Shown here one piece after another: positions 7,730 to 64,000 of a stretch of 64,000 nt of DNA (within the stretch, counting starts at the first letter, position 1; each line of letters begins with the position of its first letter). Source of the DNA: Bacilli bacterium (GTDB lineage Bacteria > Bacillota_I > Bacilli_A > RFN20 > CAG-826). The position numbers were made by a program, and so were the translations under genes. The notes under the pieces were generated by a model that was not told where the DNA came from, ran no database searches, and was given only the letters and a program-made list of their open reading frames with translations. The stretch is from positions 4,010 through 68,009 of the forward strand of contig JAKSUL010000004.1 of assembly GCA_024409055.1 (NCBI GenBank), given 5' to 3'.

Positions 7730-7765
7730 CGCGTTAATTTAATATTGTATTTAGGAGATTCATCT

Positions 7766-8617: not shown

Positions 8618-9103
8618 ATGGTTCTTAGAAAAGAAGCGGTTAATCAGATTAAAGAAATCTGCGCCCGCTACAAGGATGAGCCTTCTCCTTTAATGCTCAT
8701 TCTTTCCGACACACAAAAGGAATACGGGTACATCCCGCTCGAAGTCCAGGAAGTTATTTCTGGCGAGACTGGCATTCCGGTCTCTGAGATCTACGGAGTC
8801 GTCACTTTCTACTCCTTCTTCTCCCTCACCCCGAAAGGAAAATACGTCATCGGCTGCTGCGTTGGCACTGCCTGCTACGTCAAAGGCGGACAAAACGTCT
8901 TGGACAAGTTCGGTGAACTCCTCAAGATCAAACCGGGTGAAACCAGCGAAGACGGATTGTTCACCCTCGATGCCCTCCGTTGCATCGGTGCCTGCGGTAT
9001 CGCCCCGGCCATCTCCATCAACGGCAAGGTCTATCCGAAGGTTGCCTTAAGCGCAATCCCTGGCATCATCGCCGAATACAGAAAGAAAGCTCAGGAGGAA
9101 TAA
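8618..9103 (+). CDS. hydC: [FeFe] hydrogenase NuoE-like [2Fe-2S] subunit (HydC/HndA type)
   Basis: Thioredoxin-like [2Fe-2S] ferredoxin pattern CCVGTACYV...CIGACGIAP. It is the first gene of a three-gene operon with NuoF-like and HydA genes. Confidence 0.85.
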   Translation: MVLRKEAVNQIKEICARYKDEPSPLMLILSDTQKEYGYIPLEVQEVISGETGIPVSEIYGVVTFYSFFSLTPKGKYVIGCCVGTACYVKGGQNVLDKFGELLKIKPGETSEDGLFTLDALRCIGACGIAPAISINGKVYPKVALSAIPGIIAEYRKKAQEE

Positions 9104-9106
9104 TTC

Positions 9107-10984: not shown

Positions 10985-10989
10985 TTGCC

Positions 10990-15202: not shown

Positions 15203-15352
15203 ATCTTTGAGACATAATGCATTATTGCATTATTTGACATTCGTTTTTCTTTTTTCGGTAAATCGGTAAAAGATAATCGTTTTGAATAGGTCGTTTGGCT
15301 TGTTTGGTACAAACGTATCGATATAATGAGTTTGAAGGTTAGAGGCAGAATA

Positions 15353-16654
15353 ATGATTGCAAAAACCAAAAAAATAGGTGGAACTGACAATCTTCTCTCA
15401 AGACGTCCAGCTATCCCGGCCCCAATTCCGGATTTTATCTATATCGCGGTTAATAACGCCCGTTGCCCAAGCGCCGACATTTTTGTTAAGGAAGGCGATC
15501 ACGTCAACTTATGCCAAGTCATCGGCGTTCGTCACGGCCCGTTCTTTGACCAGCCGATCCATTCAACTGTTTCCGGAACGATGGTCAAAATCGAGAAACA
15601 CTATCACCGCTGTGGCAAACTCGTCGATTTCATGAAGATCGAAAACGACCATTTGGATACACTAGATCCATCTGTCGTCGATCGCACCCCCGAGCAAGTC
15701 GAGGCTTTAACAAAAGACGAGATGATCCAAATCATCAAGGATTGCGCCTGTGTTGGCTTGGGCGGCTCTGGTTTCCCGACGTATATCAAGCTCCAGACCA
15801 AAGAAAAGATTGATCACATTTTAATAAACGGCATCGAATGCGAGCCTTATCTAGATACCGACCAAAGGTACATGATGGACCACGCCAAAGAAATCATCGG
15901 CGGAACCATGCTTCTTCAAAAGATGTATGGGGTCAAGGATGCGAGGATTTGTATTAAAGAGACGCACCCTGAAATCATCAACGACTTGCAAGCCATTTTA
16001 GACAAGCACTACAAGGATTCCGGCATCACCATTGCTAAGATGAAGAACTTCTATCCTCAGGGATGGGAAGTCGCCATGGTGAAAACCGCTTTGGGAATCG
16101 ATATGGAACCGGGAAAGATTCCTCCGATGTACGGCATCATGAATGTCAACGTCACCACGGTCGCCAGTATTTACCTCGCCATTTGGAATAACCGCCCGGT
16201 CACCGAAAGATATATGTCCGTGAACGGAAACGGTATCAACGCACCGTCTAACTTTGTCGTTCGCGTCGGTACGCCTGTCATCAATCTCGTTCACGCAGCC
16301 GGCGGATATAAAGGAGAGGAAAAGAAGATCCTCATCTTCGGAGGCCCGATGATGGGCGCCGCTCTTCCTAACGAAGACTGTATCGCCACAAAAACCGTTA
16401 CTTCGCTCATCGTAATGAACGAATCGAAAAAACCGGAAGCGCCGTGCATCCGTTGCGGATCATGCGTTCTTTCTTGTCCGCAGCATTTGCAGCCCGTCCT
16501 CATCATGGAGGCGGTTAAAGCCATGAACAAAGAAAACATTAAGGCTCTTAAACCCCTTAATTGCATGGAATGCGGCTTATGCACATATAGTTGCACATCC
16601 GGTATTCGCGTAACTGATTTTGTAAGGAGGGCAAAGATCATAGCTAAGCTTTGA
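15353..16654 (+). CDS. rnfC: Rnf complex subunit C
   Basis: GLGGSGFPTYIK nucleotide/FMN site and 2x[4Fe-4S] (CIRCGSCVLSCP, CMECGLCTYSC). The ATG at 15353 has a GAGG RBS; the 15326 alternative has none. Confidence 0.9.
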   Translation: MIAKTKKIGGTDNLLSRRPAIPAPIPDFIYIAVNNARCPSADIFVKEGDHVNLCQVIGVRHGPFFDQPIHSTVSGTMVKIEKHYHRCGKLVDFMKIENDHLDTLDPSVVDRTPEQVEALTKDEMIQIIKDCACVGLGGSGFPTYIKLQTKEKIDHILINGIECEPYLDTDQRYMMDHAKEIIGGTMLLQKMYGVKDARICIKETHPEIINDLQAILDKHYKDSGITIAKMKNFYPQGWEVAMVKTALGIDMEPGKIPPMYGIMNVNVTTVASIYLAIWNNRPVTERYMSVNGNGINAPSNFVVRVGTPVINLVHAAGGYKGEEKKILIFGGPMMGAALPNEDCIATKTVTSLIVMNESKKPEAPCIRCGSCVLSCPQHLQPVLIMEAVKAMNKENIKALKPLNCMECGLCTYSCTSGIRVTDFVRRAKIIAKL

Positions 16655-16665
16655 TCGATTTGATT

Positions 16666-17754
16666 ATGTTATTCGTCAAAGAAACATCCCCCCACATTAG
16701 ACGTAAAGATAGCCTTAGGATGATGCTTTTAAATGTCATCATCGCTTTGGCTCCAGTCGCTATTTGGGCATACATCGTTTACCCATTAAGCGCTTTGAGG
16801 ATTCTTCCTCTTTCCGTTGCTACGTGTGTCCTTTGTGAGTTCCTATTCGTCCTTATCACGAAGAAAGATCCAAAGGCCTTTACGTTAGAAAACATCCTTT
16901 CTTCCGTTGTAACTGGACTCATCTATGGATTATGCCTCCCGCCGTCACTTAGCTGGGATAACGGGGTCGGCTATTTCGTAGTCGTCTTTGGAGCCGCCTT
17001 TGGTATCACCATCGGAAAGCTTGTCTTCGGCGGTATCGGAAGCAACATCTTCAATCCTGCCGCTTTAGGCATGATCGTCGTTCGTATTTTCTGGAGCAGC
17101 ATCTGCAAAAGCGATGCCGGCGCCCTTGGTTTTATTATCATGGAACCGTTCGATACCTCCATTTCCGTCGGCGCGACCGCTCTATCTTATCCGGCCAGCT
17201 TATATGGCTCCGTCAATATGCTCGACCTTTTCTTGGGCCGCGTACCTGGCGCACTAGGCGAAACCTTCCATATCGCGATTCTTGCGGGGCTTGTTTATCT
17301 CCTTGTTACCAGAACAATTGACTGGAGAGTCTTTGTTTCCTATATGGGAACATTCATCACGCTTGGCCTTGCCGCTGGAATTGTGGCTTTGAATAAGGTT
17401 GGCACGAACCCGCTTTATTTCGCCGCCTATCAGCTTTTGTCTGGTGGTGTGTTATTCGGCGCCGTTTTCATGGTGACCGATCCAGTTACTGGGCCTATTG
17501 CCAGTCCAACCCGCTTTATCTATGGTGCCTTCGCCGCTATCATGGCCGCCATCATCAGATTGCTTGGCAGCTATAACGAAGGTGTCGGCCTCGGCGTCTT
17601 GCTTGCCAACATGTTTGCCTGCGTTCTCGACAATCCGAAATTCTCCGCTTCTCGTTGGAACAAGAAACACCTCATTGTTCTTGGTTCTGAAATCGGAGTT
17701 GCTCTTCTTATCGTCGTATTAACGCTTTGCTTTAAGGAAGGAGCTCTCAAATAA
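16666..17754 (+). CDS. rnfD: Rnf complex subunit D
   Basis: NqrB/RnfD polytopic membrane protein. Has the SPH motif near the N-terminus and the FMN-attachment region GAVFMVTDPVTGP. Confidence 0.9.
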   Translation: MLFVKETSPHIRRKDSLRMMLLNVIIALAPVAIWAYIVYPLSALRILPLSVATCVLCEFLFVLITKKDPKAFTLENILSSVVTGLIYGLCLPPSLSWDNGVGYFVVVFGAAFGITIGKLVFGGIGSNIFNPAALGMIVVRIFWSSICKSDAGALGFIIMEPFDTSISVGATALSYPASLYGSVNMLDLFLGRVPGALGETFHIAILAGLVYLLVTRTIDWRVFVSYMGTFITLGLAAGIVALNKVGTNPLYFAAYQLLSGGVLFGAVFMVTDPVTGPIASPTRFIYGAFAAIMAAIIRLLGSYNEGVGLGVLLANMFACVLDNPKFSASRWNKKHLIVLGSEIGVALLIVVLTLCFKEGALK

Positions 17755-18440
17755 TGAAAAACAAATATTTGCAGTGCGCCTTAGTCCTCTCCTCAATCTG
17801 CGTCGTCTCGGCTGGCGCGATTGGTGCTTTGAATTATGTGGCCGAGGTTTATAAAGCCGAACATCAAACCGATGAAGCTCCGGCGACAATAACGGCCTTG
17901 GACAAAGACGCTCTTTTCCAAAAAGTTAAAGACTTCGTTCCGGTTAAAACTCTTGGTGTCACCATCAACGAGGTTTACAAGATGACCAAAGGAAATGCGT
18001 TCCTTGGCTATGCTTATGACGTTGATGGAGGAAGACCGGTCGGCAACAACCTTCTTTTCACCATTTCATTTACCGGTGCCATCACTCCGGAAACTAAAGG
18101 CAGCGTGAAACCGACCGCCATACATGTTGTGTCTGGCGGCGACGCTGGCTACACCGAAATCGTTCAGACGTATGGTGATATGGTCGTTAATGGCGAGGCC
18201 AATTTGGATGAGAACGTCAAGATTGCTCTTGGCTCAACCTCCAAATCTTCTACCGCCTTGCAGAAGGCCATCAAAATAGTTAGAGACGAATATTGCGATC
18301 GCATGAATGGCGGTCCAGCCAAAGAGGGGGCCTATATGCCTACCTTGGAAGATGAATGCAACGATTATTCGCTTCCTGTTTTTTCTAGCGATGCCGTCAC
18401 TTTCGATATGAGGACTGGCTTTGTCAGTTATCTTGGATAA
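17754..18440 (+). CDS. rnfG: Rnf complex subunit G (FMN-binding domain), divergent flavinylation motif
   Basis: N-terminal TM anchor and FMN_bind-like core, in the position between rnfD and rnfE. The expected (S/T)GAT(I/V)S motif reads LGSTSKSS. Confidence 0.8.
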   Translation: MKNKYLQCALVLSSICVVSAGAIGALNYVAEVYKAEHQTDEAPATITALDKDALFQKVKDFVPVKTLGVTINEVYKMTKGNAFLGYAYDVDGGRPVGNNLLFTISFTGAITPETKGSVKPTAIHVVSGGDAGYTEIVQTYGDMVVNGEANLDENVKIALGSTSKSSTALQKAIKIVRDEYCDRMNGGPAKEGAYMPTLEDECNDYSLPVFSSDAVTFDMRTGFVSYLG

Positions 18441-18456
18441 GGAGGAATTGGAAATC

Positions 18457-19221
18457 ATGGAAAAATCAAAAAAACTTCCGATCTTCTTAGACCCGCTCCT
18501 TAAGGCGAACCCGTTGTTCGTCATGGTGCTTGGAACCTGCCCGGCTCTTGCGGTTACAACTTCGTTTGAAGCCGCGATTGGCATGGGTATGTTGTTCACT
18601 TTTGTCGTCTTATTCTCCAACATTATCATCTCGGCCCTTCGTAAGGTTATCCCAGACGAAATAAGGACCCCGTGCTTCATCGTTGTTATCGCAACGTTCG
18701 TTACCATCGTTAAGATTCTTTCTTCAACTTTCCTTCCCGAACTCTATAGCACTTTGGGCGTCTTCGTTTCGCTCCTTGTCGTTAACTGTATTGTTTTAGG
18801 ACGTGCCGAAGCGTTTGCCTCTCAAAACACAGTCGTCGATTCGATTCTCGATGGCTTGGGAAACGGCGTCGGCTACACTTGGGCAATCGGTGCCATCGCC
18901 CTCGTTAGAGAAGTGTTAGGAACCGGCACTTTAACCTTCGGAAAAACATTTACGTTTATTCCGGAAACCACTCTTCCGATCTTAGCTAAATTCCCCGGAT
19001 CGACATTCTCTGCCGCGATGCCAGTGTTTAGATCCAATGCTGGTGGCTTCTTGGTTTTGGGCATTGCCCTTGCCATAATCGCCGCTATCGAAAACGAGAA
19101 GAAGCGCAAAGAGAAAGAAAAAGAAAAAGCCAAGGTGGCCGCTGCGAAGGCTGCCGCCGCTAAAGCCGCTGCCGCCAAAGCCATGGCTGCAAGCGAAGCC
19201 GCGGCTGAAGGAGGTAAATAA
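18457..19221 (+). CDS. rnfE: Rnf complex subunit E with Lys/Ala-rich C-terminal tail
   Basis: NqrD/RnfE pattern LLKANPLFVMVLGTCPALAVT and VNCIVLGRAEAFA. GGAGG RBS. The last 44 aa are low complexity (KKRKEKEKEKAKVAAAKAAAAKAAAAK...). Confidence 0.9.
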   Translation: MEKSKKLPIFLDPLLKANPLFVMVLGTCPALAVTTSFEAAIGMGMLFTFVVLFSNIIISALRKVIPDEIRTPCFIVVIATFVTIVKILSSTFLPELYSTLGVFVSLLVVNCIVLGRAEAFASQNTVVDSILDGLGNGVGYTWAIGAIALVREVLGTGTLTFGKTFTFIPETTLPILAKFPGSTFSAAMPVFRSNAGGFLVLGIALAIIAAIENEKKRKEKEKEKAKVAAAKAAAAKAAAAKAMAASEAAAEGGK

Positions 19222-19223
19222 TT

Positions 19224-19826
19224 ATGTCTTACATCATATCGTTTATCCTCGCCATCGTTTCCTACATGGTCATCGACAACGTCATTTTGTCGAGATACTT
19301 CGGAATCTGTTCCTTCATCGGTGTTTCCAACAAAATCAAATCGGCGGTTTCCATGGGCATTGCCGTTGCCTTCGTCACCATTTTGGCGGCCCTCGTTTGC
19401 TGGCCGATATACACCTTCATCTTGGTTCCGGCCAAGATGGAATACATGGAGACAATTGTTTTCATCCTCGTCATTGCCTCTTTGGTTCAGATCGTCGGAT
19501 ACTTCATCAAAAAGAAATCCCCGACCTTATATAGAAGCCTCGGCATCTACCTCCCGCTTATCACGACCAACTGCGCGGTCTTGGGCGTCGTCGAAAGCAA
19601 CATGGCCTTCGACTTTGGGCGTTCAATGGCTAACGCGATTGGTACGTCTTTAGGCTTCATCCTCGTCATCTTCCTCTTCGCTTGCATTAGGGGACGCCTT
19701 GAATCTTCTAATACCCCGAAAGCCTTCAAAGGAGTTCCGATCGCTCTTATAGTCGCCGGCATCATGGCCATTGTCTTCATGGGCTTAAGCGGACTTATTG
19801 ATCTCGGAAGCTGGGGGGTCATCTGA
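19224..19826 (+). CDS. rnfA: Rnf complex subunit A
   Basis: NqrE/RnfA pattern LGICSF-like FGICSFIGVS and ITTNCAVLGV. 200 aa. Confidence 0.9.
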   Translation: MSYIISFILAIVSYMVIDNVILSRYFGICSFIGVSNKIKSAVSMGIAVAFVTILAALVCWPIYTFILVPAKMEYMETIVFILVIASLVQIVGYFIKKKSPTLYRSLGIYLPLITTNCAVLGVVESNMAFDFGRSMANAIGTSLGFILVIFLFACIRGRLESSNTPKAFKGVPIALIVAGIMAIVFMGLSGLIDLGSWGVI

Positions 19827-26532: not shown

Positions 26533-27963
26533 ATGAAAAAATTATTAGTCTTAGCCGCCTCTGCCGGACTAGTCTTCTCCGGCGCTGCCGCAGTTACGGC
26601 CAATGTCTTGAACACGCCAGTTGTCGAGACCAAAGCTGAAGCCGCTGGAACTTCTCAAATCATTACCGAAGAGGTCGATGTTACTGGGAAGACAAAATTA
26701 AGAGCTTCCGAAGGATCTTTCATTAAAGTCGCCAATCCGAAAACTTCCGGTCTTGGACTTTACATGGAATTTAAGGTCGCTAATCCGGAAAATACGCGTC
26801 GCCAAGTCATCCGTTTACAAAAGAACGGCGTTGATGCCAGCGGAAACATTTACTTATTAGATGTTTCTGATGCTGGCGGTGTCGCTATGTCGAGCTACGG
26901 AGCTGCTGTTCTCGACAGGACGCCTGGAAGGCGTGATGTCGTTAGCCTCGCCGACGGCTGGATGAAATATGAAGTTATGTTTGCCGATGCCGGCATAAAC
27001 GAAGGTGTTGATTACATCGATGGTATCAACTTAAGCGCCTGGGGCGATGCCTCCAACATCGTCGCTGTTCGTAATATTAAGATCACCGATCAAACGACAT
27101 ATCTCGGCATGACTCCTTGCACATACGAAGATCGCGGTGGCGACGGCCAATACCTCAAAGGGTATGGCGTGAATCGTCAAATGCCCGCGGTTGCTAACTG
27201 GAAAACTTCCGGAAAAGGCGTTTCCTTTGAGTTTAAGCCGGCGGAAGGCAGAGATTTCGAAACCTTGATTCAATTCAAGGAACAGCCGAATAGCTGGGCG
27301 ACCGTCTCTAGTGGAAACATTTATATGTATCGCCCTGGAAATACTGGTACTGCCACCTGCGGTAAAACAATCACTTTAGCTGATGGCTGGTATCGCTACG
27401 AAGCGATGTTCGCCGATGTTTCGTGTGTCGATGGAAAAGAAACATCCACGGTTTCGATTCTCTATTTCGGACAATGGGCAAATGACGTTAAATACGGATG
27501 CCGCCCAACCATCAGAAACGTTAAGTTAATCTCCTTCTATTCTTCCGCTGCTGAAACCGAGGTTGGAGATTACGCAACCAACGTCATGAATAACACTGCT
27601 GCGGTTTGTGTCGCCGACGGATCCACCGATCAAGAGGCTCTTACCGAAACTGTTGCGGCCCTAAAGACGAGATACAACACCCTCGCCCCGCAATCCAAGA
27701 TTCTTACGGTCTATCCGGAAAATATTGTTGGAGCTGATCAAAAGACCATAGTCGAGAGAGCCAACGCTAGACTCGGCTACATCTTCGCCAAATATCCGAG
27801 CATCGCGAACTACACTCCGGTCCCGGTCACCGCTGCTTACGGTACTTCCTTCCTCTTCAATGGAAACAGCGCTTCCGAGTACTACGTCGTCGCTGCTGTC
27901 GGCGGAGTCGCCTTGCTTGCCGCTGGTGGACTCATCTTCTCCAGGAAGAAAAAACACAACTAA
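26533..27963 (+). CDS. secreted, C-terminally membrane-anchored surface protein with two copies of an uncharacterised ~150-aa module
   Basis: Signal peptide. Motifs WKTSGKGVSFEFKP and DGW(M/Y)(K/R)YE(V/A)MFAD are each duplicated. The C-terminal TM plus SRKKKHN lacks the GCGG motif. Paralogous to 44832..46733. Confidence 0.6.
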   Translation: MKKLLVLAASAGLVFSGAAAVTANVLNTPVVETKAEAAGTSQIITEEVDVTGKTKLRASEGSFIKVANPKTSGLGLYMEFKVANPENTRRQVIRLQKNGVDASGNIYLLDVSDAGGVAMSSYGAAVLDRTPGRRDVVSLADGWMKYEVMFADAGINEGVDYIDGINLSAWGDASNIVAVRNIKITDQTTYLGMTPCTYEDRGGDGQYLKGYGVNRQMPAVANWKTSGKGVSFEFKPAEGRDFETLIQFKEQPNSWATVSSGNIYMYRPGNTGTATCGKTITLADGWYRYEAMFADVSCVDGKETSTVSILYFGQWANDVKYGCRPTIRNVKLISFYSSAAETEVGDYATNVMNNTAAVCVADGSTDQEALTETVAALKTRYNTLAPQSKILTVYPENIVGADQKTIVERANARLGYIFAKYPSIANYTPVPVTAAYGTSFLFNGNSASEYYVVAAVGGVALLAAGGLIFSRKKKHN

Positions 27964-43465: not shown

Positions 43466-44818
43466 ATGAAGAAAAACCCCTTTCTTATCGTTTCGTCCGT
43501 CGTTAGCCTTCTTTTGGTTGGCTGCGGTGGCGAAACAAAGGGCAAATGCATTGATGGCGGCGACCATGCGTATGTTCACCATGAAGCGGTGACGTACGAA
43601 GAGAAAAACGGCACCGCTGAATACTATTCATGTTCGAAGTGCGAGCATCTTTTTGATGTTAGCTATAAAGAAGTCGACAAAGTGCCGGTCGCTCCTCCGA
43701 ATAGAAAGATAATTCTTCCCTATAAAATGGAGGGAGAAAGACAGGAGACCATAGATAACACAGTCATTGGTTATTTATCTTGTCGCAACGAAGAGGAAGC
43801 CGCTGGATACCTATATACAAATAGGGGAAGAACGGAATGCTCAACCAAGTCTGTCATGATTTCATGGAGAAATAGCGGGTCAAGCGGATCGTATAAAGTT
43901 CAGCTTTCTAAAGATTCGTCGTTTTCGAAAATCGATTTAGAAAGAGCGACCACGTCTACCTCTATTTCCTTGTCGAATTTAGAACCATCCACCTATTACT
44001 ACAAAGTGGTGGACACTAAAGGAAATGAATCGTTGGTGGATTATTTCACGATGAATCCGCTAAGAACCATCAAATCCACAAATGGTGGCGTCGTGAATAT
44101 GCGAGACCTTGGCGGTTGGGAAACGACGACAGGGGATAAGATTAGGTATGGAAAACTCTATAGGTCGGCCCTTCCTTCTACGGCCGACGTCCCTCTCTTT
44201 AATGAATTAGGGATAAAGACGGAAATTGACCTCCGTATTAAAGGCGGTTCCGCAGATCAAATCGGAGACTTTAATGGAATTAGCCCGAATATCAATTACG
44301 TTATAGCTCTTGGGGAGGGTGAACGTTATTGGCCTCAATACGACATGATTTTGGAGGACCAATACAAATCGTATTCAAAAGGGTATTTCGACAAGATATT
44401 CACCTTGATGTCCGACGAAGCCAATTATCCGATTAACTTCCATTGCAAAAGCGGGGCTGATAGAACCGGAACGCTTGCCTACCTCATAAACGGGCTTTGT
44501 GGCGTTTCTTATGAAAACCTTACGAAAGATTTCGAATTGACCTCGTTTTATAAATCTCCTCGTTGGAGGAGCGATATCCAGGGAGACGGGGCCACATATT
44601 GGTTCACTGATACTGGAATGATGGCGACTGGCGACAATGTCCATTGGGGCAAGTTCCATAAAGAAATTATGGAAAAATACGGAGACTCATCTAAACTAGT
44701 CTCAAAGGCGATCCTCAATTATTTGACCTCATATTGCGAGGTTGATGAGATGAAGATCAAAAAATCATTGTCTATTCTCCTTGAAGGAGAGGCTTACTTG
44801 GATTTATTTGCCAAGTAG
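43466..44818 (+). CDS. lipoprotein with Fn3-like domain and C-terminal Cys-based (CX5R) phosphatase domain
   Basis: Lipobox SLLLVGC-GGE. Fn3-like segment (SYKVQLSKDSSFS...YYYKV). P-loop FHCKSGADRTGT at 44438-44473, typical of tyrosine/dual-specificity-type (Y_phosphatase3-like) phosphatases. Confidence 0.7.
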   Translation: MKKNPFLIVSSVVSLLLVGCGGETKGKCIDGGDHAYVHHEAVTYEEKNGTAEYYSCSKCEHLFDVSYKEVDKVPVAPPNRKIILPYKMEGERQETIDNTVIGYLSCRNEEEAAGYLYTNRGRTECSTKSVMISWRNSGSSGSYKVQLSKDSSFSKIDLERATTSTSISLSNLEPSTYYYKVVDTKGNESLVDYFTMNPLRTIKSTNGGVVNMRDLGGWETTTGDKIRYGKLYRSALPSTADVPLFNELGIKTEIDLRIKGGSADQIGDFNGISPNINYVIALGEGERYWPQYDMILEDQYKSYSKGYFDKIFTLMSDEANYPINFHCKSGADRTGTLAYLINGLCGVSYENLTKDFELTSFYKSPRWRSDIQGDGATYWFTDTGMMATGDNVHWGKFHKEIMEKYGDSSKLVSKAILNYLTSYCEVDEMKIKKSLSILLEGEAYLDLFAK

Positions 44819-44831
44819 AGAAAGGATTCAT

Positions 44832-46733
44832 ATGAAAAAGAAAACCTTAATTTGCTCTATTTTGTCTTTAGCTGCGATTGGTGCGATGGGAATCGGGGCC
44901 AACGTTGCCACGACTCCTTGGACCCCATCTACCGCGGTTAAGGCTGACGATGGATTCAAAGACATGACCGAAAAAGGATTCTGGGCCGCTAGCGATGGTG
45001 ACTTCGTCCAAGTCGAAAATTGGTTCAATTCCGGAAAAGGATTCTCCTTTGAATTTAAACTTGCCGATAACGTCATGAAGGAAATGAGTGTGAAGCTCTA
45101 TTCTGGATCCACCGAAATCACTTCTAATTTCTATGGCTTCCAGCCGAATGAAGATGGCACCGATTTGTCTACCAACGCCGCCAAAATTGCTTCATGGAGA
45201 GGACGTGCGTTCCTTTTGAATGCGGAAGAGAAAGTCTACCGCTACGAATTGATGTTCTCCGACCTCGTCGATAAAAAGAAAGCGGGATTCGAAGACGCTA
45301 CAGTCGATGGAATCACATTCCTTTGGAACTGGGGAGCCCCTTACCAAAACAAATTCTTAGTCAGAGACTTGAAGGTTATTAATGACTATAGTGACGAAGC
45401 CTTCTACCACGAGGTCGATACTTCTGGCCCAGATCAATACCTCAAATATGCCGAGCATACCTTTATTCAGATAGAAAACTGGAAAACATCAGGGAAGGGA
45501 TTCGCTCTTCATTTCAAACCGCGTGAAAACGGGCAGGTTGTCGTTATGCTTAATGGAAATTCTGCAGATGGCACTATTCGAGGAAGGGATGTCAGCAAAT
45601 ACAAATACATCTATAGAAAAGGCGGAAACCCGGATGTTGGCAAGGTGTTCGATATTGGCGACGGATGGTATCGCTATGAAGTTATGTTCTCCGAGCTCGA
45701 AAGCGTTAATGTCGATGGCGTTGACGGCGGAACTTTTACCGTCACTCAGCTCCACATCGCTTGGATGAGTTCTGGATATGGAATCACAACCTCTGGCAGA
45801 ACCGCCATTATCGACGGCTATTCCTATAACTACTCATTCAATATCGATGGCGTTGTCACCGAAAAAGGCTATACCGCGAAAGCCCTTGAGGAGCCGACCG
45901 CTCCATCAAAAGAGGGAAACCACTTCTGCGGTTGGTATACCGAGCCGGAATTCACAAATAAATATGAGTTCGGTAATCCATTAACTTCTGATGTTTCCTT
46001 GTATGCCAAATTTGAACCTCACGCATACACGGAGCATTGCCATGACGAAAACGAACACTGGGACGCCTGCGAATGCGGCGAAAAAACCAATGTTGGTGTT
46101 CACGTCTATGATCAAGAAGCCGCGAACGAAGAATTCTATGCTGCTCCGGCCACTTGCATGCACGGCAAGGAGTATTACAAATCTTGCGTTTGCGGAGCCA
46201 AAGGAAGTGAAACCTTCATGGTTGGTGAAAAGGATCCAACCGTTCACGTTCCAGGTGCTTCGACCAAAGAAAATATGACCGCTCCAGGGTGTGAAACTGA
46301 TGGCGGATACGACAATGTCGTCCGTTGCGAAGAATGTCACGAAATTGTCTCCTCTTCCCACGTTGTCATCCCGGCCAGCGGGCATGATTACGTCGAGTCC
46401 TCTTGGTCTTTGAGCGAAGATAAGACAACTGGCACTCTCCATCTTGTCTGCGGCAATGATAGCAGCCACACCAAAGATGTTTCAGCCACCGTCACTGTCG
46501 TGGTTGTCGAACCGACCACTGAGAAAGATGGAAAGGCCACGTATACCTTATCTGCTAATTTCGAAGGCAAATCTTATAGTCACGTCATCGAAGAAATCCT
46601 TCCCAAGAAAGACCCAGAACCAGAGCCGAAGAAAGACGGAGGATGTGGTGGAGCCATTGTTGGTTGTAGCGCAGCCGCTATCGTCGGATTGGTCGGACTC
46701 GGTGTTGTCGCCATTAAACGCAAAGAAAAATAA
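44832..46733 (+). CDS. surface protein: two copies of the 26533-type module, a Listeria-Bacteroides repeat, a Cys/His-rich region and a GCGG C-terminal anchor
   Basis: Signal peptide. Motifs WFNSGKGFSFEFKL / WKTSGKGFALHFKP and DGWYRYEVMFSEL. GWYTEPEFTNKYEFGNPLTSDVSLYAKF matches the Flg_new/List-Bact repeat. The tail is DGGCGGAIVGCSAAAIVGLVGLGVVAIKRKEK. Confidence 0.65.
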   Translation: MKKKTLICSILSLAAIGAMGIGANVATTPWTPSTAVKADDGFKDMTEKGFWAASDGDFVQVENWFNSGKGFSFEFKLADNVMKEMSVKLYSGSTEITSNFYGFQPNEDGTDLSTNAAKIASWRGRAFLLNAEEKVYRYELMFSDLVDKKKAGFEDATVDGITFLWNWGAPYQNKFLVRDLKVINDYSDEAFYHEVDTSGPDQYLKYAEHTFIQIENWKTSGKGFALHFKPRENGQVVVMLNGNSADGTIRGRDVSKYKYIYRKGGNPDVGKVFDIGDGWYRYEVMFSELESVNVDGVDGGTFTVTQLHIAWMSSGYGITTSGRTAIIDGYSYNYSFNIDGVVTEKGYTAKALEEPTAPSKEGNHFCGWYTEPEFTNKYEFGNPLTSDVSLYAKFEPHAYTEHCHDENEHWDACECGEKTNVGVHVYDQEAANEEFYAAPATCMHGKEYYKSCVCGAKGSETFMVGEKDPTVHVPGASTKENMTAPGCETDGGYDNVVRCEECHEIVSSSHVVIPASGHDYVESSWSLSEDKTTGTLHLVCGNDSSHTKDVSATVTVVVVEPTTEKDGKATYTLSANFEGKSYSHVIEEILPKKDPEPEPKKDGGCGGAIVGCSAAAIVGLVGLGVVAIKRKEK

Positions 46734-58526: not shown

Positions 58527-58868
58527 ATGGCAAAAGTAAGACGCTATATGGGCGGCTATGTTCTTCAATTTGAGGGTGACCGAATTCGTGAATATATGGG
58601 CGGATACCTTTATCAGATTGAAGGAGATCGCGTTCGTCGTTATATGGGGGGTTACGTCTACCAAATAGAAGGTAACCGAGTTAGAGACTACATGGGCGGT
58701 TACATCTTGGAGTTCGATGGAAAGAGGCTGCGCCGCTACATGGGCGGCTATGTGGCTGAAGTCGAGGGAGACAAAATCCGCCAGTATATGGGCGACTATG
58801 TTTACCAAATCGAGGGATTTTTAACAAACAAAGAAATGATGGTGTTGCTCACGCTTCTGTTTGCGTAA
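58527..58868 (+). CDS. small protein built from six tandem 16-aa repeats (consensus RRYMGGYVYQIEGDRV) with a hydrophobic C-terminal tail
   Basis: GAGGAAA RBS. The repeats are conserved at the amino-acid level while synonymous codons differ between units. The tail is KEMMVLLTLLFA. Confidence 0.6.
   Translation: MAKVRRYMGGYVLQFEGDRIREYMGGYLYQIEGDRVRRYMGGYVYQIEGNRVRDYMGGYILEFDGKRLRRYMGGYVAEVEGDKIRQYMGDYVYQIEGFLTNKEMMVLLTLLFA
58539..58817 (+). repeat. 48-bp-period coding tandem repeat (5 full units plus 1 partial)
   Basis: Units start at 58539, 58587, 58635, 58683, 58731 and 58779, each containing TA(T/C)ATGGG(N)G(G/A)(N)TA. Confidence 0.8.
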
Positions 58869-58904
58869 TAATGTTTGCGCCTCGTCAATAAAGGGAATAC
58901 GTAT

Positions 58905-59879
58905 ATGAAAAAATACATTGGAACAATCATAACCGTCATCGTCGTTTTGGCAGCGACAGTGCTTGGGTTCGTCTTCTGCCCGCCGAATTTGGACAGCCTT
59001 CAACTCGAGACCATGTTTATCTTGGCCTGCATAACCGGTGGATCGATTTTATATTGCTTTATCGTTGGTGAAATAACTCTTAATAACTCTCAAATGGATA
59101 AGCTTTGGAGCATCCTTCCGATTGCTTATATTTGGGTTATCGCGATAAAGGGAGGCCTATCCCCGCGTCTTCTCATCATGGCGCTTTTGGTGACCTTGTG
59201 GGGTATCCGTCTCACTGCTAATTTTGCAAGAAAAGGCGCCTATTCTATTAAGTTTTGGACGGGTGAAGAAGACTACCGTTGGGTTGTTTTAAGGAAAAAC
59301 AAACTTCTTCAGCCGAGGTGGAAATGGGCCATCTTTGATTTGCTATTTATCTCTATTTATCAAAACGTTCTAGTTTTGGCGATATGTTTGCCTGCCGTTG
59401 CCGTCATGTCTTCAACCGCTTCATTTGGAGTTTGGGACTATGTGGCTTCCATTGCCATGTTTGGCTTTATTCTTTTGGAGACTATCGCCGACGAGCAACA
59501 GATGGCGTTCTACAAGAAAAGGGGCGAATATTACGCCCAAGGAAAGAAGCTTGAAGAAATGCCGCTCCCGTATAGCAGAGGTTTCAATACATCGGGATTA
59601 TGGGGACATTCCCGCCACCCGAACTATTTTTCGGAACAAGGCACTTGGATTTCTCTCTATATCTTCACAATCGGAGCTGGAGTCATCGTTTACGGTGTCT
59701 TCAACTGGTCGATGGTTGGCTGTTTGTTCTTGGTCCTTCTTTTCCTAGGAAGCTCGGCTTTTGGAGAAGGGGTCTCGTCTTCAAAGTATCCTGAATACAA
59801 ACTTTACCAAGCGAAAGTCTCCAAATACGTCCCTTGGCTCAAATATAATCCAACCAAGGAATCCGCTGAGACGAAATAA
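58905..59879 (+). CDS. DUF1295 / steroid-5-alpha-reductase-like membrane protein
   Basis: Polytopic. The motif GLWGHSRHPNYFSEQGTWISLY is typical of DUF1295/ICMT-like families. ATG at 58905 with an AAGGGA RBS. Confidence 0.7.
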   Translation: MKKYIGTIITVIVVLAATVLGFVFCPPNLDSLQLETMFILACITGGSILYCFIVGEITLNNSQMDKLWSILPIAYIWVIAIKGGLSPRLLIMALLVTLWGIRLTANFARKGAYSIKFWTGEEDYRWVVLRKNKLLQPRWKWAIFDLLFISIYQNVLVLAICLPAVAVMSSTASFGVWDYVASIAMFGFILLETIADEQQMAFYKKRGEYYAQGKKLEEMPLPYSRGFNTSGLWGHSRHPNYFSEQGTWISLYIFTIGAGVIVYGVFNWSMVGCLFLVLLFLGSSAFGEGVSSSKYPEYKLYQAKVSKYVPWLKYNPTKESAETK

Positions 59880-60020: not shown

Positions 60021-60029
60021 GTATTGCAT

Positions 60030-61568
60030 ATGAAAAAGAGGCACCTTGTTTTTAGCGTTCTTATCTTGGCTCTTTTTGCTTGTGCTTCGGTGTCATCGGC
60101 GTTCGCAAATTTAAACAACGAGCCGACCGTCGTTAACGCCGCCGACTATTCATCCTATTGGAATGGAATCGATACTTCCGGAAAGACTGTAGGCAACACA
60201 TTCAGAAAATCTCTCCAAGACATCATGAAGTCTAAGGGAACAAAGACAGGTTCCAATTCTTATAAAGGTCTCAACACGATTTTGGCAAAGAGCGATGCCG
60301 ATCCGAAAGATTCATCGAAGGTCATTCCTTTTTACCATGGGCCCAATGAATCGGTCACCGCTTCGTGGAACACCACCATCAATAAAGAACACACTTGGCC
60401 GAATAGCCGTGGTGCCGGTGAGAACTCCGGATATGCCGGAACCGATCCGCAAGTCATTCGTCCAACGTTGATAAAAGATAACAGCAGCCGTGGCAACTCT
60501 ATGTTCGCTGAATCAGGGGCTTACGACCCGGCAAGTTTGGGCTATGAACCCGCTAGAGGAGAGGCAGCCCGCATCATCCTTTATGCCGCCACGATGTATT
60601 ACAACAAATCGACATCAGGGGCTGGAGGAACTTCGAAAGGGAGCAAACCTCTTGAACTAACGAATAACGTAAGCGATTCGGCAAGTAACTGCACCATGGG
60701 TAGGTTGAGGGATCTTCTTAAATGGAACCTCCAATACCCAGTGACGGATGCCGAGGTCAGGAGGAACAACTATTTGACCTCCATCAACTATGCTAGAAAC
60801 CCGTTTATCGATAATCCTGAATGGGCAAATTTCATTTGGGACGATAACGGTATTCGCCAATCGCCTTACGACCCGACATCTTCTTATTCGCCCGTTTCCA
60901 TTTCTTCGTCTTCAGAAAGTCAAATTCCAAGCGGCGCCAAGTATCAAATGATTCAGGACACCAGGGAACTCGTTATCGGAAAGCATTACGCGATCGCCGG
61001 AGAAAATAGCACCTCGTATTTCGCCATGAAGAACGAGATAAAAGCCACATATTACATTGATCAAGTTCAAGTTAACGTCACCGACGGAATTCTTACGAGT
61101 GCCGATGGAATGTGCGATTTCGTTTTAGAAGAAGGCACTACCCCTGGGACTTATGCATTTCACGATGCGAGTGCAGGTTATTTAAACGGCGTCATGAGCG
61201 GGACTCACTACAATGTCGGGTACCAAACTAACGGATCCGCCAAAAACACCGATTGGACCATTTCTTCGTATAAGGATGGCTTCAGTTTGATGTCTGGGAA
61301 CGGAGTCTATGCATCTCATTACGCTGAAAAAGCCGACTTTACTGGAAGCCAATATGCCGCGGAACTTTATTTATTCGAATTGATCGATGGCCCGACCCCA
61401 ACTTCTTCAAGCTCGCAGGCCACCAGTGAACATCCTCCCGTTTCTCATTCTGATTCTAGTGGAGCAGGAGGGACTGGCTGCGGTGGTTCTATCGTTGGAA
61501 CGTTGGCGGTTTCGACCATCGGCCTTTTCGGCCTAGGTTTGGCGTTTGCCATCAAAAAGAGGAAATGA
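60030..61568 (+). CDS. extracellular endonuclease I family nuclease with extra C-terminal domain and GCGG C-terminal anchor
   Basis: Signal peptide. Endonuclease_1 motifs NKEHTWPNSRG, DPQVIRPTLIKDNSSRGNSMF, AARIILYAATMY and RNPFIDNPEWA. The tail is GGTGCGGSIVGTLAVSTIGLFGLGLAFAIKKRK. Confidence 0.85.
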   Translation: MKKRHLVFSVLILALFACASVSSAFANLNNEPTVVNAADYSSYWNGIDTSGKTVGNTFRKSLQDIMKSKGTKTGSNSYKGLNTILAKSDADPKDSSKVIPFYHGPNESVTASWNTTINKEHTWPNSRGAGENSGYAGTDPQVIRPTLIKDNSSRGNSMFAESGAYDPASLGYEPARGEAARIILYAATMYYNKSTSGAGGTSKGSKPLELTNNVSDSASNCTMGRLRDLLKWNLQYPVTDAEVRRNNYLTSINYARNPFIDNPEWANFIWDDNGIRQSPYDPTSSYSPVSISSSSESQIPSGAKYQMIQDTRELVIGKHYAIAGENSTSYFAMKNEIKATYYIDQVQVNVTDGILTSADGMCDFVLEEGTTPGTYAFHDASAGYLNGVMSGTHYNVGYQTNGSAKNTDWTISSYKDGFSLMSGNGVYASHYAEKADFTGSQYAAELYLFELIDGPTPTSSSSQATSEHPPVSHSDSSGAGGTGCGGSIVGTLAVSTIGLFGLGLAFAIKKRK

Positions 61569-61571
61569 ACA

Positions 61572-62690
61572 ATGAAATTGAAGGCCGGTAAAAAAACAAT
61601 TATTGCTACCGCCCTTCTTTCGCTTTGCTCCATTGCCGTTTCTTTCTCGCTCTTTGGAAAAACCGTTTCCTCAGTAGATGCTAGAGGGGGAGATTACTCA
61701 GTTCCTCTTGACGGGTATTACGACGAAATAACGGCCACGTCTGGCAGGGAATTAACTGGTCAGGTGCATGACTTGATCGTGAAAACCCACCAAAATTACA
61801 CGACGTATGACGACAACGGGAAAAACGGTCTTCAGAAGCAGGCCGATTACGATCCCGAGAATCCGAGCAACATTATCGAATGGTATTCCGGCATGCCTAT
61901 GCCAAATGCGTGGAATCCAGTCACCGGTGGATACAATCGCGAGCATGTATGGTGCCAATCTCTTTCGAATGGATTATGGGGTGAAAAAGGAGGGGGTGCG
62001 GATATGCACCATCTTCGCCCTGTTGAGGTTTCTTTAAATACCGCTAGAAACAATAGCCCCTACGGCATTGTCCCAAATAGGGAGAACTATAAAAAATACC
62101 CAAAAGACTTAAACAAAAACTACATCACCGATTGGTGCGGCGGTTATAAAACCAATGACGTTTTCGAGCCTATCGATTCCAAGAAAGGCGATGTCGCCCG
62201 CGTCGTAATGTATACGTACCTGCACTATTCTACGTATGCGAACGTTGGCGGGACCACCAATGGGTCCGGCGGAATAGATTATTTCGGCACCCTTCCGATT
62301 ACGAATGTTATTTCGGCCGCCAACGAGCAGGACGCTTGGAAACTATTGATCGATTGGAACAACATGGATCCGGTCGACATCCTCGAAATAAATAGAAACG
62401 AAGCTGTTGCAAAATTTCAGGGGAATAGAAATCCTTTTATCGATCATCCTGAATATGCAGCCGCTATGTGGGGAGATCAACCGCTTCCGCCACCGACTAG
62501 TGAGCCGTCTTCTTCGACAATTGAGTCGTCGCCGATTGAATCATCTTTAGCTCCTACCTCTCAGTCTGGAGGAGGGAACGGATGCGGTGGGGCCATCGAA
62601 TCCACCCTATCTCTACTGGCGATTGGACTTGGAGGGTGTGCGGTCCTCACGACAACTTGGCTAATCAAACGCGCTAAAGAAAGGAAATAA
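61572..62690 (+). CDS. extracellular endonuclease I family nuclease with GCGG C-terminal anchor
   Basis: Signal peptide. Motifs NREHVWCQSLS, DMHHLRPVEVSLNTARNNSPYG, VARVVMYTYLHY and RNPFIDHPEYA. The tail is GGNGCGGAIESTLSLLAIGLGGCAVLTTTWLIKRAKERK. Confidence 0.85.
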   Translation: MKLKAGKKTIIATALLSLCSIAVSFSLFGKTVSSVDARGGDYSVPLDGYYDEITATSGRELTGQVHDLIVKTHQNYTTYDDNGKNGLQKQADYDPENPSNIIEWYSGMPMPNAWNPVTGGYNREHVWCQSLSNGLWGEKGGGADMHHLRPVEVSLNTARNNSPYGIVPNRENYKKYPKDLNKNYITDWCGGYKTNDVFEPIDSKKGDVARVVMYTYLHYSTYANVGGTTNGSGGIDYFGTLPITNVISAANEQDAWKLLIDWNNMDPVDILEINRNEAVAKFQGNRNPFIDHPEYAAAMWGDQPLPPPTSEPSSSTIESSPIESSLAPTSQSGGGNGCGGAIESTLSLLAIGLGGCAVLTTTWLIKRAKERK

Positions 62691-62694
62691 TGTC

Positions 62695-64000
62695 ATGAAA
62701 AAGAGAACAAAGATATTCGCCGCTCTTGCTGCATTGTGCCTTGCTTTTTCTAGCGGTGCCGTCGCTTCCTTCTTTGGGAGCGTCGTCGATGCGGTGGAAG
62801 CCGCTGTTGTAACTACTCCTGACGGTGCGGCCATCAATAGCGTTTGGAGCGGGCTAGATACAGGAAAATACGGAGCTCAGTTTGCGACTGAATTAAGAAA
62901 CAAAATGGCAAGCGTCAAAACAAAGAGCAGTTCCTACGATGACCTTAAAACCATCCTCTGTAGTTCCGATTTGGATCCGGCCGGTTCCGGAAAGATGCTT
63001 GGCTTCTACGATGCTACAAAACTCAATGCCGTTTGGGATAGCGCCGCTACGTGGAATAGAGAACACGTGTGGCCCGATTCTCGTGGCGTTGGCAAATCTG
63101 GACCTGGTTCAGATCCCCATATGATTCGTCCTGCCTCCGTAAAAATAAATTCGTCCCGTGGCAACTCTATGTACGGAGAATCCGGTAGCACCTATGATGC
63201 CGGGCAATATGTCGAATATTACCGTGGTATCGCCGCAAGGATCATTTTCTACACAGCGACATATTATGGAAAGGCTAGTGGTGGAGGATCTCTTTTCCTC
63301 ACCAACGAAACCAGCGTGGTCACAAACGCTATGGGAAGGATCAGCGATCTTCTCAAATGGAATGCTAAATACCCGGTTCAGCCATCCGAAATCGTGAGAA
63401 ACGAATACCTCTACGCTAACGGATATGGTCGCAATCCTTTTATCGATAATCCAGAATTCGCCTCATATATTTGGACTGTTGATTCGTCAAAAGGCGGTAA
63501 CAATTCAAATAACTACGTGAGAACTACGGCGTATACCGGAGACGAATATACGTATGAATCGGCTTCTTCCTCGTTCTCATATAGTGTCTCTCCCTCAACG
63601 TCGAAATCCACTTCGACTTCGAGCGGATCCACGTCTTCTCAAACTTCTATCAGTTCCGAAACCTCTGCCTCTTCCTCGACGTCAGGGAATGTGATTATCA
63701 CTCCCGATACTGTCAATATGCCTACCTCGTATCCGACCACTGATACTCAGTATTCTTTAGAAGGTTTGAACTTGACGTTAAATAACGTGGGCCGCTTCCT
63801 CTACAACAATGTTCCATACATTCAGATGAAGAAGAGCGGAAGTTATCTTTATAACAAGTCCGCCTTATCGGAAATCTCCCAGATAAAAATTACGTTAAAC
63901 AGCGGGACGATCCCGACTGTTACTTATGGTAATACCTCTTCTTTAGGGAATACCGCAACTCCGTCACAAAGTGGATCTGTCTATTCATTTAATTTAAATG
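62695..64000 (+). CDS. extracellular endonuclease I family nuclease, 5' partial (runs off the window end; absent from the supplied ORF track)
   Basis: I translated the frame from the ATG at 62695 by hand; it stays open to 64000. It begins MKKRTKIFAALAALCLAFSSGAVAS... and contains NREHVWPDSRG, DPHMIRPASVKINSSRGNSMY, AARIIFYTATYY and RNPFIDNPEFA, followed by a Ser/Thr-rich linker. Confidence 0.8.
   Translation, partial: MKKRTKIFAALAALCLAFSSGAVASFFGSVVDAVEAAVVTTPDGAAINSVWSGLDTGKYGAQFATELRNKMASVKTKSSSYDDLKTILCSSDLDPAGSGKMLGFYDATKLNAVWDSAATWNREHVWPDSRGVGKSGPGSDPHMIRPASVKINSSRGNSMYGESGSTYDAGQYVEYYRGIAARIIFYTATYYGKASGGGSLFLTNETSVVTNAMGRISDLLKWNAKYPVQPSEIVRNEYLYANGYGRNPFIDNPEFASYIWTVDSSKGGNNSNNYVRTTAYTGDEYTYESASSSFSYSVSPSTSKSTSTSSGSTSSQTSISSETSASSSTSGNVIITPDTVNMPTSYPTTDTQYSLEGLNLTLNNVGRFLYNNVPYIQMKKSGSYLYNKSALSEISQIKITLNSGTIPTVTYGNTSSLGNTATPSQSGSVYSFNLN

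Follow-up and report, generated by a model that had tools for sequence, protein, structure and literature searches.

The stretch analysed here, called the window below, comprises 64,000 nucleotides of contig JAKSUL010000004.1 (assembly GCA_024409055.1) of a Bacilli bacterium. It encodes three secreted proteins whose C-termini are built alike: a low-complexity linker is followed by the motif G-C-G-G-[SA]-I, by 21–26 mostly hydrophobic residues and by a cluster of lysines and arginines directly before the stop codon. This Cys-type tail, in which the first-pass annotation of the window saw a candidate sorting signal, is the subject of the present work. As had been stated there, two of the carriers are adjacent nucleases (Endonuclease_1, PF04231), the third one (Flg_new, PF09479) is unrelated to them, and a low-complexity linker precedes each of the three tails.

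The tail-bearing proteins of the window

According to the list of open reading frames (ORFs), nuclease 1 is synthesized as a precursor of 514 amino acids (60024..61568, + strand; PF04231 E-value 3.2e-18). It is composed of an N-terminal signal peptide, the Endonuclease_1 domain, an extra C-terminal domain and a Ser/Pro/Gly linker leading into the tail SGAGGTG-C-GGSIVG, hydrophobic helix, KKRK and stop (61470..61565, + strand; the ORF ends ...SGAGGTGCGGSIVGTLAVSTIGLFGLGLAFAIKKRK). The precursor of nuclease 2, 372 amino acids long in the same list, is encoded at 61572..62690 (+ strand; PF04231 E-value 1.2e-33). Its signal peptide, Endonuclease_1 domain and Pro/Ser linker are followed by the tail SGGGNG-C-GGAIES, a long hydrophobic helix, KRAKERK and stop (62565..62687, + strand; C-terminal end of the ORF ...SGGGNGCGGAIESTLSLLAIGLGGCAVLTTTWLIKRAKERK), which is the most divergent of the three. 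The surface protein with the Flg_new (Listeria-Bacteroides) repeat occupies 44832..46733 (+ strand; PF09479 E-value 7.9e-13), the ATG at 44832 being its likely start in preference to the listed TTG at 44781. A signal peptide (MKKKTLICS...), a Cys-rich region and a Lys/Pro/Glu linker precede the tail DGG-C-GGAIVG, hydrophobic helix, KRKEK and stop (46635..46730, + strand; the ORF 44781-46733 ends ...DGGCGGAIVGCSAAAIVGLVGLGVVAIKRKEK). The span 61470-61565 initially assigned to the first tail is exact, whereas the starts 62574 and 46638 of the other two are corrected here to 62565 and 46635; all positions agree within three codons.

The string CGG occurs eight times in the window ORFs of at least 150 amino acids. 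Three of these occurrences are the tails (29–35 residues before the stop) and two are N-terminal lipoboxes. When a leave-out profile made of 28 tails of other organisms only was scored on 324 window ORFs, the three window tails took ranks 1, 2 and 3. The highest rank belongs to tail 3, the tail of the Flg_new protein (22.4 bits, E 1e-6), followed by tail 1 of nuclease 1 (9.4 bits for the whole protein and 14.4 bits for the domain, E 0.013) and tail 2 of nuclease 2 (4.3 bits, E 0.5). With a profile made only of tails adjacent to the Lgt-like/CPBP operon described below, tail 3 receives 23.4 bits in the ORF scan and, as an isolated tail, 30.5 bits (36.4 bits without composition correction). By these scores, the tail of the Flg_new protein is a clear member of the tail family. 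The nuclease tails have a longer, Leu/Thr-rich helix and are placed in the same family because of their G-C-G-G-x-I motif, their architecture and the typical tails on nuclease homologues in other lineages.

The ORF at 26533-27963 (+ strand) encodes a secreted protein of 476 amino acids that is paralogous to the 44781 protein in the N-terminal part of the latter. It ends in a Cys-free helix and SRKKKHN and scores only 4 bits with the tail profile. This protein forms an internal contrast, and one genome therefore has both Cys-type and plain C-terminal anchors.

An additional cysteine is present in the core of the N-terminal signal peptide of about 12 of 16 tail-bearing precursors (e.g. LFAC, LIAC, VLSC), and only some of these segments fit a lipobox. 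Among the 16 precursors read for this feature are those of the window at 60024, 61572 and 44832 as well as those of loci L067, L104, L126, L129, L133, L134, L137, L141 and L159.

The tail in other genomes and among known sorting signals

A profile of 10 tails was searched against 1.84 billion (1.84e9) representative proteins at E≤1e-3. All 23 significant matches (23/23) lie within 0–6 residues of the C-terminus. The carriers are unrelated to each other: GH3, GDSL lipase, CBM_X2 and M26_N proteins and proteins without a Pfam match, to which Big_3, Flg_new and Endonuclease_1 proteins are added from the whole material; signal peptides are visible in the tail-bearing sequences. The enrichment at C-termini expected in the first-pass annotation is thus observed, and its interpretation of the tail as a sorting signal is supported, the tail being a module specific to extreme C-termini of unrelated secreted proteins. 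A word-index search with the tail alignment yielded no scored match among 2162 candidates. Nuclease 2 has 5952 matches; of the 120 Endonuclease_1 homologues listed from these, eight carry the tail, the window protein included. In the seven from other lineages it reads ...KGCG[GSA]xIG..., helix, RRK(D), and most of the other homologues listed end in different anchors or in none.

The species genomes of GTDB were scanned with a hand-made DNA pattern (C-G-x-x-I, gap, KK(x)KED-stop; codon before Cys left free), which favours TGC codons and KK(x)KED endings. Sixty of the 87 matched stretches are valid, i.e. represent in-frame, stop-terminated, hydrophobic tails. The residue before Cys, free in the pattern, is Gly in 57 of 58 cases. 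All valid tails with a listed record title come from metagenome-assembled genomes (MAGs) labelled Clostridia, Eubacteriales, Lachnospiraceae, Oscillospiraceae, Christensenellaceae or Bacilli (no title is listed for L089-L095), and the pattern matches from non-Bacillota phyla are all invalid. Even under this strict pattern two or three tails are found in several MAGs, and three are present in the 64-kb window. Tails of the window type (GCGGSI) resemble those of Bacilli MAGs, among them RGIG3500, RGIG8459, RGIG5035, RGIG9216 and UBA1744.

The motif in 27 tails collected outside the DNA pattern is G(96%)-C(100%)-[G62/K18]-[S70/G18]-x-[I77/V18]-G(81%), and 94 of 100 tails have their first basic residue 22–25 amino acids after the Cys. 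In consensus form, a linker of the acidic/Lys or of the Ser/Gly type leads into G-C-[GK]-[SG]-x-[IV]-G; about 20 residues that are small or hydrophobic come next, and the stop codon follows a cluster of K/R, in many cases KK(R)KED. The shared Cys motif noticed in the first reading of the window is retained in this formula; its spelling as G-x-G-C-G-G is replaced.

Two variants were encountered. At locus L068 (3-338, + strand) a tyrosine takes the place of the invariant cysteine in an otherwise typical tail (GGYGGSIG...KRKED), and a normal Cys tail adjoins it. The metagenome protein P0123 of only 75 amino acids consists of an N-terminal lipoprotein signal, a 25-residue linker and a typical Cys-type tail. 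Several NCBIfam lipoprotein models match its N-terminal signal weakly (E about 3e-4), below their cut-offs. The mature product of P0123, if real, could be a short peptide lipidated at both ends.

The comparison with NCBIfam release 20 (June 2026) and Pfam covered isolated tails, complete proteins, another 10 carriers and 31 tails taken as a set; the scan of the 31 tails gives E-values and names 25 of the 33 matched families. In accordance with the novelty supposed at the outset, no NCBIfam or Pfam sorting-signal model reached its cut-off in the 26 scans with bit scores. The weak matches of the tails (LPXTG_anchor, Rumino_NPXTG, Loki-CTERM, PEP-CTERM, PTPA-CTERM) cover the helix and the basic part. 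Within the group of PEP-CTERM, GlyGly-CTERM, PGF-CTERM, Loki-CTERM and PTPA-CTERM the bit scores obtained are 9–17 on these parts, below the respective cut-offs of 16–29; GlyGly-CTERM is listed in none of the scans, and PGF-CTERM matches one of the 31 tails (E 0.0086). For MYXO-CTERM (TIGR03901 / TIGR03382) no match is listed for the window tails, and two of the 31 tails match weakly (best E 0.006). Synerg-CTERM (TIGR04564), JDVT-CTERM and CGP-CTERM give no match at E≤10 with the three window tails, the three full window proteins and the 10 carriers, and these three models, as well as GlyGly-CTERM, are not among the 25 families named for the 31 tails. The LPXTG models (TIGR01167 / PF00746) are matched without an LPXTG motif, at 12–15.5 bits against 15.9 and over model positions 10–33 only; for one isolated tail (E 0.0015) the helix and basic part may by themselves lift the score above the cut-off. 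Among the 31 tails, 13 match LPXTG weakly and 12 match Rumino_NPXTG. NF058595, the "lipo-invert putative C-terminal anchoring domain" (cut-off 37), is listed for no tail or tail-bearing protein scanned individually at its C-terminal tail; its sole weak match (14.2 bits) falls on the N-terminal lipoprotein signal of P0123. Literature searches retrieved no description of such a tail in Bacillota or of the Lgt/CPBP operon, and no paper describing NF058595. In our view the three window tails rather probably belong to a widespread, so far unmodelled C-terminal sorting signal of gut and rumen Bacillota, in which the cysteine would be lipidated and the helix removed.

The Lgt-like/CPBP operon and the proposed fate of the tail

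At locus L067 a tail gene is followed by an Lgt-like gene (PF01790) and by a CPBP gene (PF02517), the last two overlapping by 8 nt. The same order of tail protein, LGT and CPBP is found at the L096 / P0157 locus. The nearest homologues of the L067 CPBP protein form a compact clade of proteins of ~260 residues from Clostridia MAGs, and a metagenome scan with the alignment of this clade yielded 80 loci (672,676 bp). In 52 of the 80 an Lgt-like gene ends between -35 and +143 nt relative to the start of the CPBP gene. Twenty-five close CPBP relatives, scoring 156 bits or more, have 800 nt or more of sequence ahead of the gene, and the Lgt-like gene is there in 25 of 25 cases; the 15 metagenome loci without the Lgt-like gene contain the most distant CPBP relatives. 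In 28 loci the gene upstream of the Lgt-like gene is readable. It encodes a Cys-tail protein in 16 of them, these 16 representing ~9 lineages and at least two protein families, and FtsK in another eight of the 28. All of the profile-positive tails in the 672,676 bp (14/14) are located directly upstream of the Lgt-like/CPBP pair. The 33 operon loci, with a GC content of 33–62%, share no genes other than those for the Lgt-like and CPBP proteins, and the operon-adjacent targets all have Sec signal peptides. The idea of lipid attachment and cleavage, put forward in the first-pass annotation, gains support because this operon lies directly 3' of tail genes in ~9 lineages.

More distant CPBP relatives (P0236, P0250 and the 15 low-scoring metagenome loci) were discarded as candidates. 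They have neither the Lgt-like gene nor tails nearby, and the link is therefore confined to a single CPBP clade. In lineages with no target ahead of the Lgt-like/CPBP pair, the upstream gene is ftsK at loci L113, L116-L118, L120, L124, L127 and L179. At L125 and L182 the upstream gene encodes a conserved membrane protein of ~215 amino acids without a Pfam match, with the end ...IRDYLVRNKKY...NIELF. Clustering of the neighbours of the ~60 dispersed tail loci revealed no recurrent family; the targets are scattered, as with housekeeping sorting systems.

The CPBP protein of the operon (71.8 bits with PF02517, cut-off 22.4) keeps the catalytic motifs EExxxR, FxxxH and HxxxN, and FEELAFRG, FGLxH and HAVYN are conserved in 27 sequences. 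Its structure is predicted with a mean local confidence (pLDDT) of 91.7, and the best match among solved structures is the CPBP-family protein SpdC (6u0o_A, probability 1.0, TM 0.51); a sequence search of the PDB with the CPBP profile gave no match. By its motifs and its predicted fold, the operon protease is a member of the CPBP / Rce1-like glutamic intramembrane protease family. The myxosortase family models considered were Mrt_core (NF040914), MrtJ, MrtS, MrtX, MrtC and MrtP. A generic ABC-permease/CPBP fusion model aside, the best specific matches are MrtJ (22–36 bits, cut-off 75), Mrt_core (16–30 bits, cut-off 100) and MrtS (20–26 bits, cut-off 130), and the protein remains below all NCBIfam cut-offs.

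The Lgt-like protein reaches 105.5 bits with Pfam LGT (cut-off 24.9) and stays below the cut-offs of TIGR00544 (66–98 bits, cut-off 118.9) and NF000778 (103–118 bits, cut-off 334). Since Pfam LGT is reached and TIGR00544 is not, it is a member of the Lgt family but not a recognised Lgt orthologue. It is aligned with E. coli Lgt (5AZB) at only 35 bits and keeps the equivalents of R143, Y235, R239 and E243. The Lgt signature in PROSITE is G-R-x-G-N-F-x-N-x-E-x-x-G; the corresponding segment reads GRIGCLMAGCC.G in the Lgt-like protein and GRLGNFINGELWG in E. coli Lgt. The tail and nuclease loci scanned yielded no further ORF of the Lgt family, but they comprise too little sequence to show whether the Lgt-like protein is an extra copy.

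A membrane protein with a DUF1295 domain (PF06966, E 3.6e-40) is encoded at 58875-59879 (+ strand), directly upstream of the nucleases of the window. The protein is presumably a superfamily relative of isoprenylcysteine carboxyl methyltransferase (ICMT) and recalls the third step of CAAX processing. As an ICMT-like partner of the tails it was dropped: among 26 membrane proteins scanned only the window's own gene matched, DUF1295 is absent from the nuclease loci, and no DUF1295, ICMT or PEMT gene recurs near other tail genes or operons.

The following course of events is proposed. The precursor would be exported by Sec via its N-terminal signal peptide, which is seen in the sequences. The C-terminal helix would then stop the transfer, leaving the basic cluster inside the cell, and the invariant cysteine at the outer face of the membrane would be lipidated by the Lgt-family transferase. 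Finally, the Rce1-like CPBP glutamic intramembrane protease would cut just after the lipidated cysteine and the helix would be removed, so that the mature protein would be tethered to the outer leaflet by a C-terminal lipid, as a mirror image of N-terminal lipoproteins. All steps after export are suggested by the gene context elsewhere and by analogy with Rce1 and myxosortase, and the exact chemistry is the least certain among them. Tentatively, we propose a dedicated C-terminal lipoprotein pathway of Bacillota, in which a specialised Lgt paralogue would lipidate the cysteine of G-C-G-S-x-I-G and the co-transcribed Rce1-like protease would remove the helix.

Several observations weigh against this pathway. 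The operon is near only one of the ~60 dispersed tail loci, so that a single favoured neighbour per genome carries the link. It was seen only in loci and proteins labelled Clostridia, whereas GCGGSI, the tail type closest to that of the window, was seen in Bacilli MAGs. The 64-kb window itself contains no Lgt-like or CPBP gene and no processing enzyme; that it has no sortase, exosortase or rhombosortase gene had been recognised from the beginning. The Lgt-like protein has cysteines in place of N146 and E151, and H103 is replaced by alanine; its chemistry is uncertain because N146 and E151 of the canonical Lgt signature are missing. Both nuclease tails score weakly with profiles from other organisms and represent divergent variants. 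This last point, together with the shortness of the motif, could also indicate a chance resemblance or low-complexity artefact, i.e. Gly-rich linkers and helices that happen to hold a cysteine. Such an explanation is extremely improbable and is refuted by the position of all 23 database matches at the extreme C-terminus, by the 60 valid tails of which all titled ones belong to Bacillota, by the glycine in 57 of 58 free -1 positions and by ranks 1–3 of the window tails among 324 ORFs.

It is unlikely, but deserves more weight, that the tail is a plain uncleaved transmembrane anchor with G-C-G serving as a hinge or as a site of reversible S-acylation or of an intermolecular disulfide, the Lgt-like and CPBP proteins acting on other substrates. 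Such an anchor would account for the stop-transfer features of the tail, every one of which is present, for the Cys-free helix-plus-basic tails on other nuclease homologues and on the window protein 26533-27963, and for the lack of a processing enzyme in the window. It leaves unexplained the near-invariant G-C, the I/V at +4, the G at +5 and the spacing of 22–25 residues across unrelated proteins and loci of 33–62% GC, as well as the location of each profile-positive tail in the CPBP loci directly upstream of the Lgt-like/CPBP pair. Still less probable is a cleavage or release signal handled by housekeeping enzymes, namely ordinary Lgt with LspA, a rhomboid or another CPBP protein; the same low probability applies to the variant in which a cut at or before the cysteine frees the enzyme to the medium or passes it to the wall in a sortase-like manner. 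The G(-1)-C pair does correspond to lipobox positions -1/+1 in a genome rich in LVGC-GG lipoproteins, but the -3/-2 positions are charged or small instead of Leu/Ala, and the tail helix is oriented opposite to a signal peptide, so the geometry of LspA does not fit. The helix and KKRKED part is LPXTG-like (two tails reach 15.1 and 15.5 bits against 15.9, besides the weak matches of 13 of the 31 tails), yet an LPXTG-like motif is absent and only model positions 10–33 are matched. The myxosortase MrtX processed its substrate in E. coli, which suggests that a housekeeping transferase can suffice (PMC11980579), while a conserved dedicated Lgt-like/CPBP operon beside the targets argues for a specific system.

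Related systems and biological meaning

The known system closest in design is MYXO-CTERM with the myxosortase MrtX of Myxococcota. MYXO-CTERM is cut by the CPBP protease MrtX, and lipidation of its cysteine by an unidentified "Lgt-like" enzyme is a working model (PMC11980579; Haft 2023 preprint); in a 2025 mBio paper Lgt is only a leading candidate for the modifying enzyme. Both systems share a Gly-rich motif with an invariant cysteine (GCGC in MYXO-CTERM), helix and basic cluster, many unrelated targets per genome, and an Rce1-like CPBP glutamic intramembrane protease, cognate in MYXO-CTERM and a candidate here. They also share the model of Cys lipidation followed by a cut after the cysteine, which for the present tails is our inference. 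By this analogy the tail and the operon fit the published model closely, as a monoderm counterpart of MYXO-CTERM/myxosortase. Unlike MYXO-CTERM, the present tails and CPBP protein stay below every curated cut-off, and the basic cluster is Lys-rich with a terminal Glu-Asp instead of Arg-rich. The present hosts are Bacillota, normally monoderm, and therefore neither an outer-membrane step nor one of type II secretion is to be expected. In contrast to Mrt systems, for which no such link has been described, the present protease is co-operonic with a divergent Lgt-family gene.

With the pathway of N-terminal lipoproteins (Lgt, LspA) the tails share a Gly-preceded cysteine at the outer end of the helix, positive charges at its other end and a genetically linked Lgt-family protein. 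The topology is a mirror image, the signal being C-terminal with the cysteine before the helix; Leu/Ala at -3/-2 are missing, and the partner is a CPBP protease and not LspA. Eukaryotic CAAX processing (prenyltransferase, Rce1, ICMT) likewise combines a lipidated cysteine with an Rce1-family protease that removes the residues beyond it, as is proposed here. It differs in that three residues follow the cysteine, against ~28 including the helix in the tails; the present event would be extracytoplasmic, the transferase belongs to the Lgt family and not to the prenyltransferases, and no linked methyltransferase was found. The LPXTG/sortase and Rumino_NPXTG signals resemble the tails in their position in the protein, in their hosts and in a similar helix with a KRKED-type charged end. 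In the tails, however, a Cys motif directly abutting the helix replaces LPXTG/NPXTG, and no sortase is linked. The name of NF058595 suggests a lipoprotein-like signal used at the C-terminus, as in the tails, but this model is 113 positions long.

In the window organism the signal would keep two or three DNases, together with an adhesin-like protein, attached to the cell surface. The nuclease genes form a tandem of three Endonuclease_1 paralogues (60024-63999, + strand), the third of which (62695..63999, + strand; PF04231 E-value 3.4e-22) is cut by the window end and has its C-terminus outside. Nucleases 1 and 3 are alike (NKEHTWPNSRG vs NREHVWPDSRG). The window DNases probably scavenge extracellular DNA. 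Tail-bearing Endonuclease_1 genes are found in a conserved nucleoside-salvage operon at loci L001, L002, L003 and L005 (homologues P0027, P0075, P0089 and P0107). The order of this operon is deoC, pnp, phosphopentomutase (deoB), cdd, 5'-nucleotidase, thymidine phosphorylase, tdk and nuclease, followed by two unknown genes or an RDD protein, an ABC transporter and SNase. Since tail-bearing homologues sit in nucleoside-salvage operons, a likely role of the window nucleases is that of surface-tethered DNases feeding nucleotide scavenging.

N-terminal lipoproteins, in which the lipobox cysteine is followed by G-G, G-S or S-G, are encoded in the window at 7745, 13489, 20405, 22501 (- strand), 31334, 38126, 40142 and 43466; those at 13489 and 43466 read LVGC-GGG and LVGC-GGE, as reported initially. 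With so many of them, the genome makes heavy use of lipid anchoring, and genes for an ordinary Lgt and LspA must lie elsewhere in it. A 113-residue ORF at 58527-58868 (+ strand) contains six 16-residue repeats (R-x-Y-M-G-G-Y-x-x-x-x-E-G-x-x-x) and a hydrophobic end and has no Pfam match. From reading of the ORFs, 8618-12765 looks like a trimeric [FeFe]-hydrogenase-like cluster (NuoE-like, NuoF-like and hydrogenase subunits) and 15326-19826 looks like an Rnf complex. Such putative genes would be typical of an organism that lives by anaerobic fermentation, which agrees with a Bacillota MAG from gut or rumen.

Sorting signals of the C-terminal Cys type that are linked to CPBP proteases are known as such; new are the setting in monoderm Bacillota, the signature motif and the operonic putative Lgt paralogue. 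If the proposed pathway is true, the long-sought lipid transferase for Cys-type signals of the MYXO-CTERM class would for the first time be identified genetically, and the pathway would be a bacterial extracytoplasmic counterpart of eukaryotic CAAX processing. The Lgt-like/CPBP operon beside its substrates would be a compact three-gene unit open to reconstitution, by which the question of the MYXO-CTERM Cys modifier becomes testable. The tail profile and the two enzyme subfamilies could serve as new annotation models. Surface display in Gram-positive bacteria is now explained by sortase, N-terminal lipoproteins, wall-binding domains and plain helices. A Cys-type C-terminal signal in uncultured Clostridia and Bacilli of gut and rumen would add a further route, and prediction of the surface proteome of gut and rumen microbiomes, including glycoside hydrolases, nucleases and adhesins, would improve.

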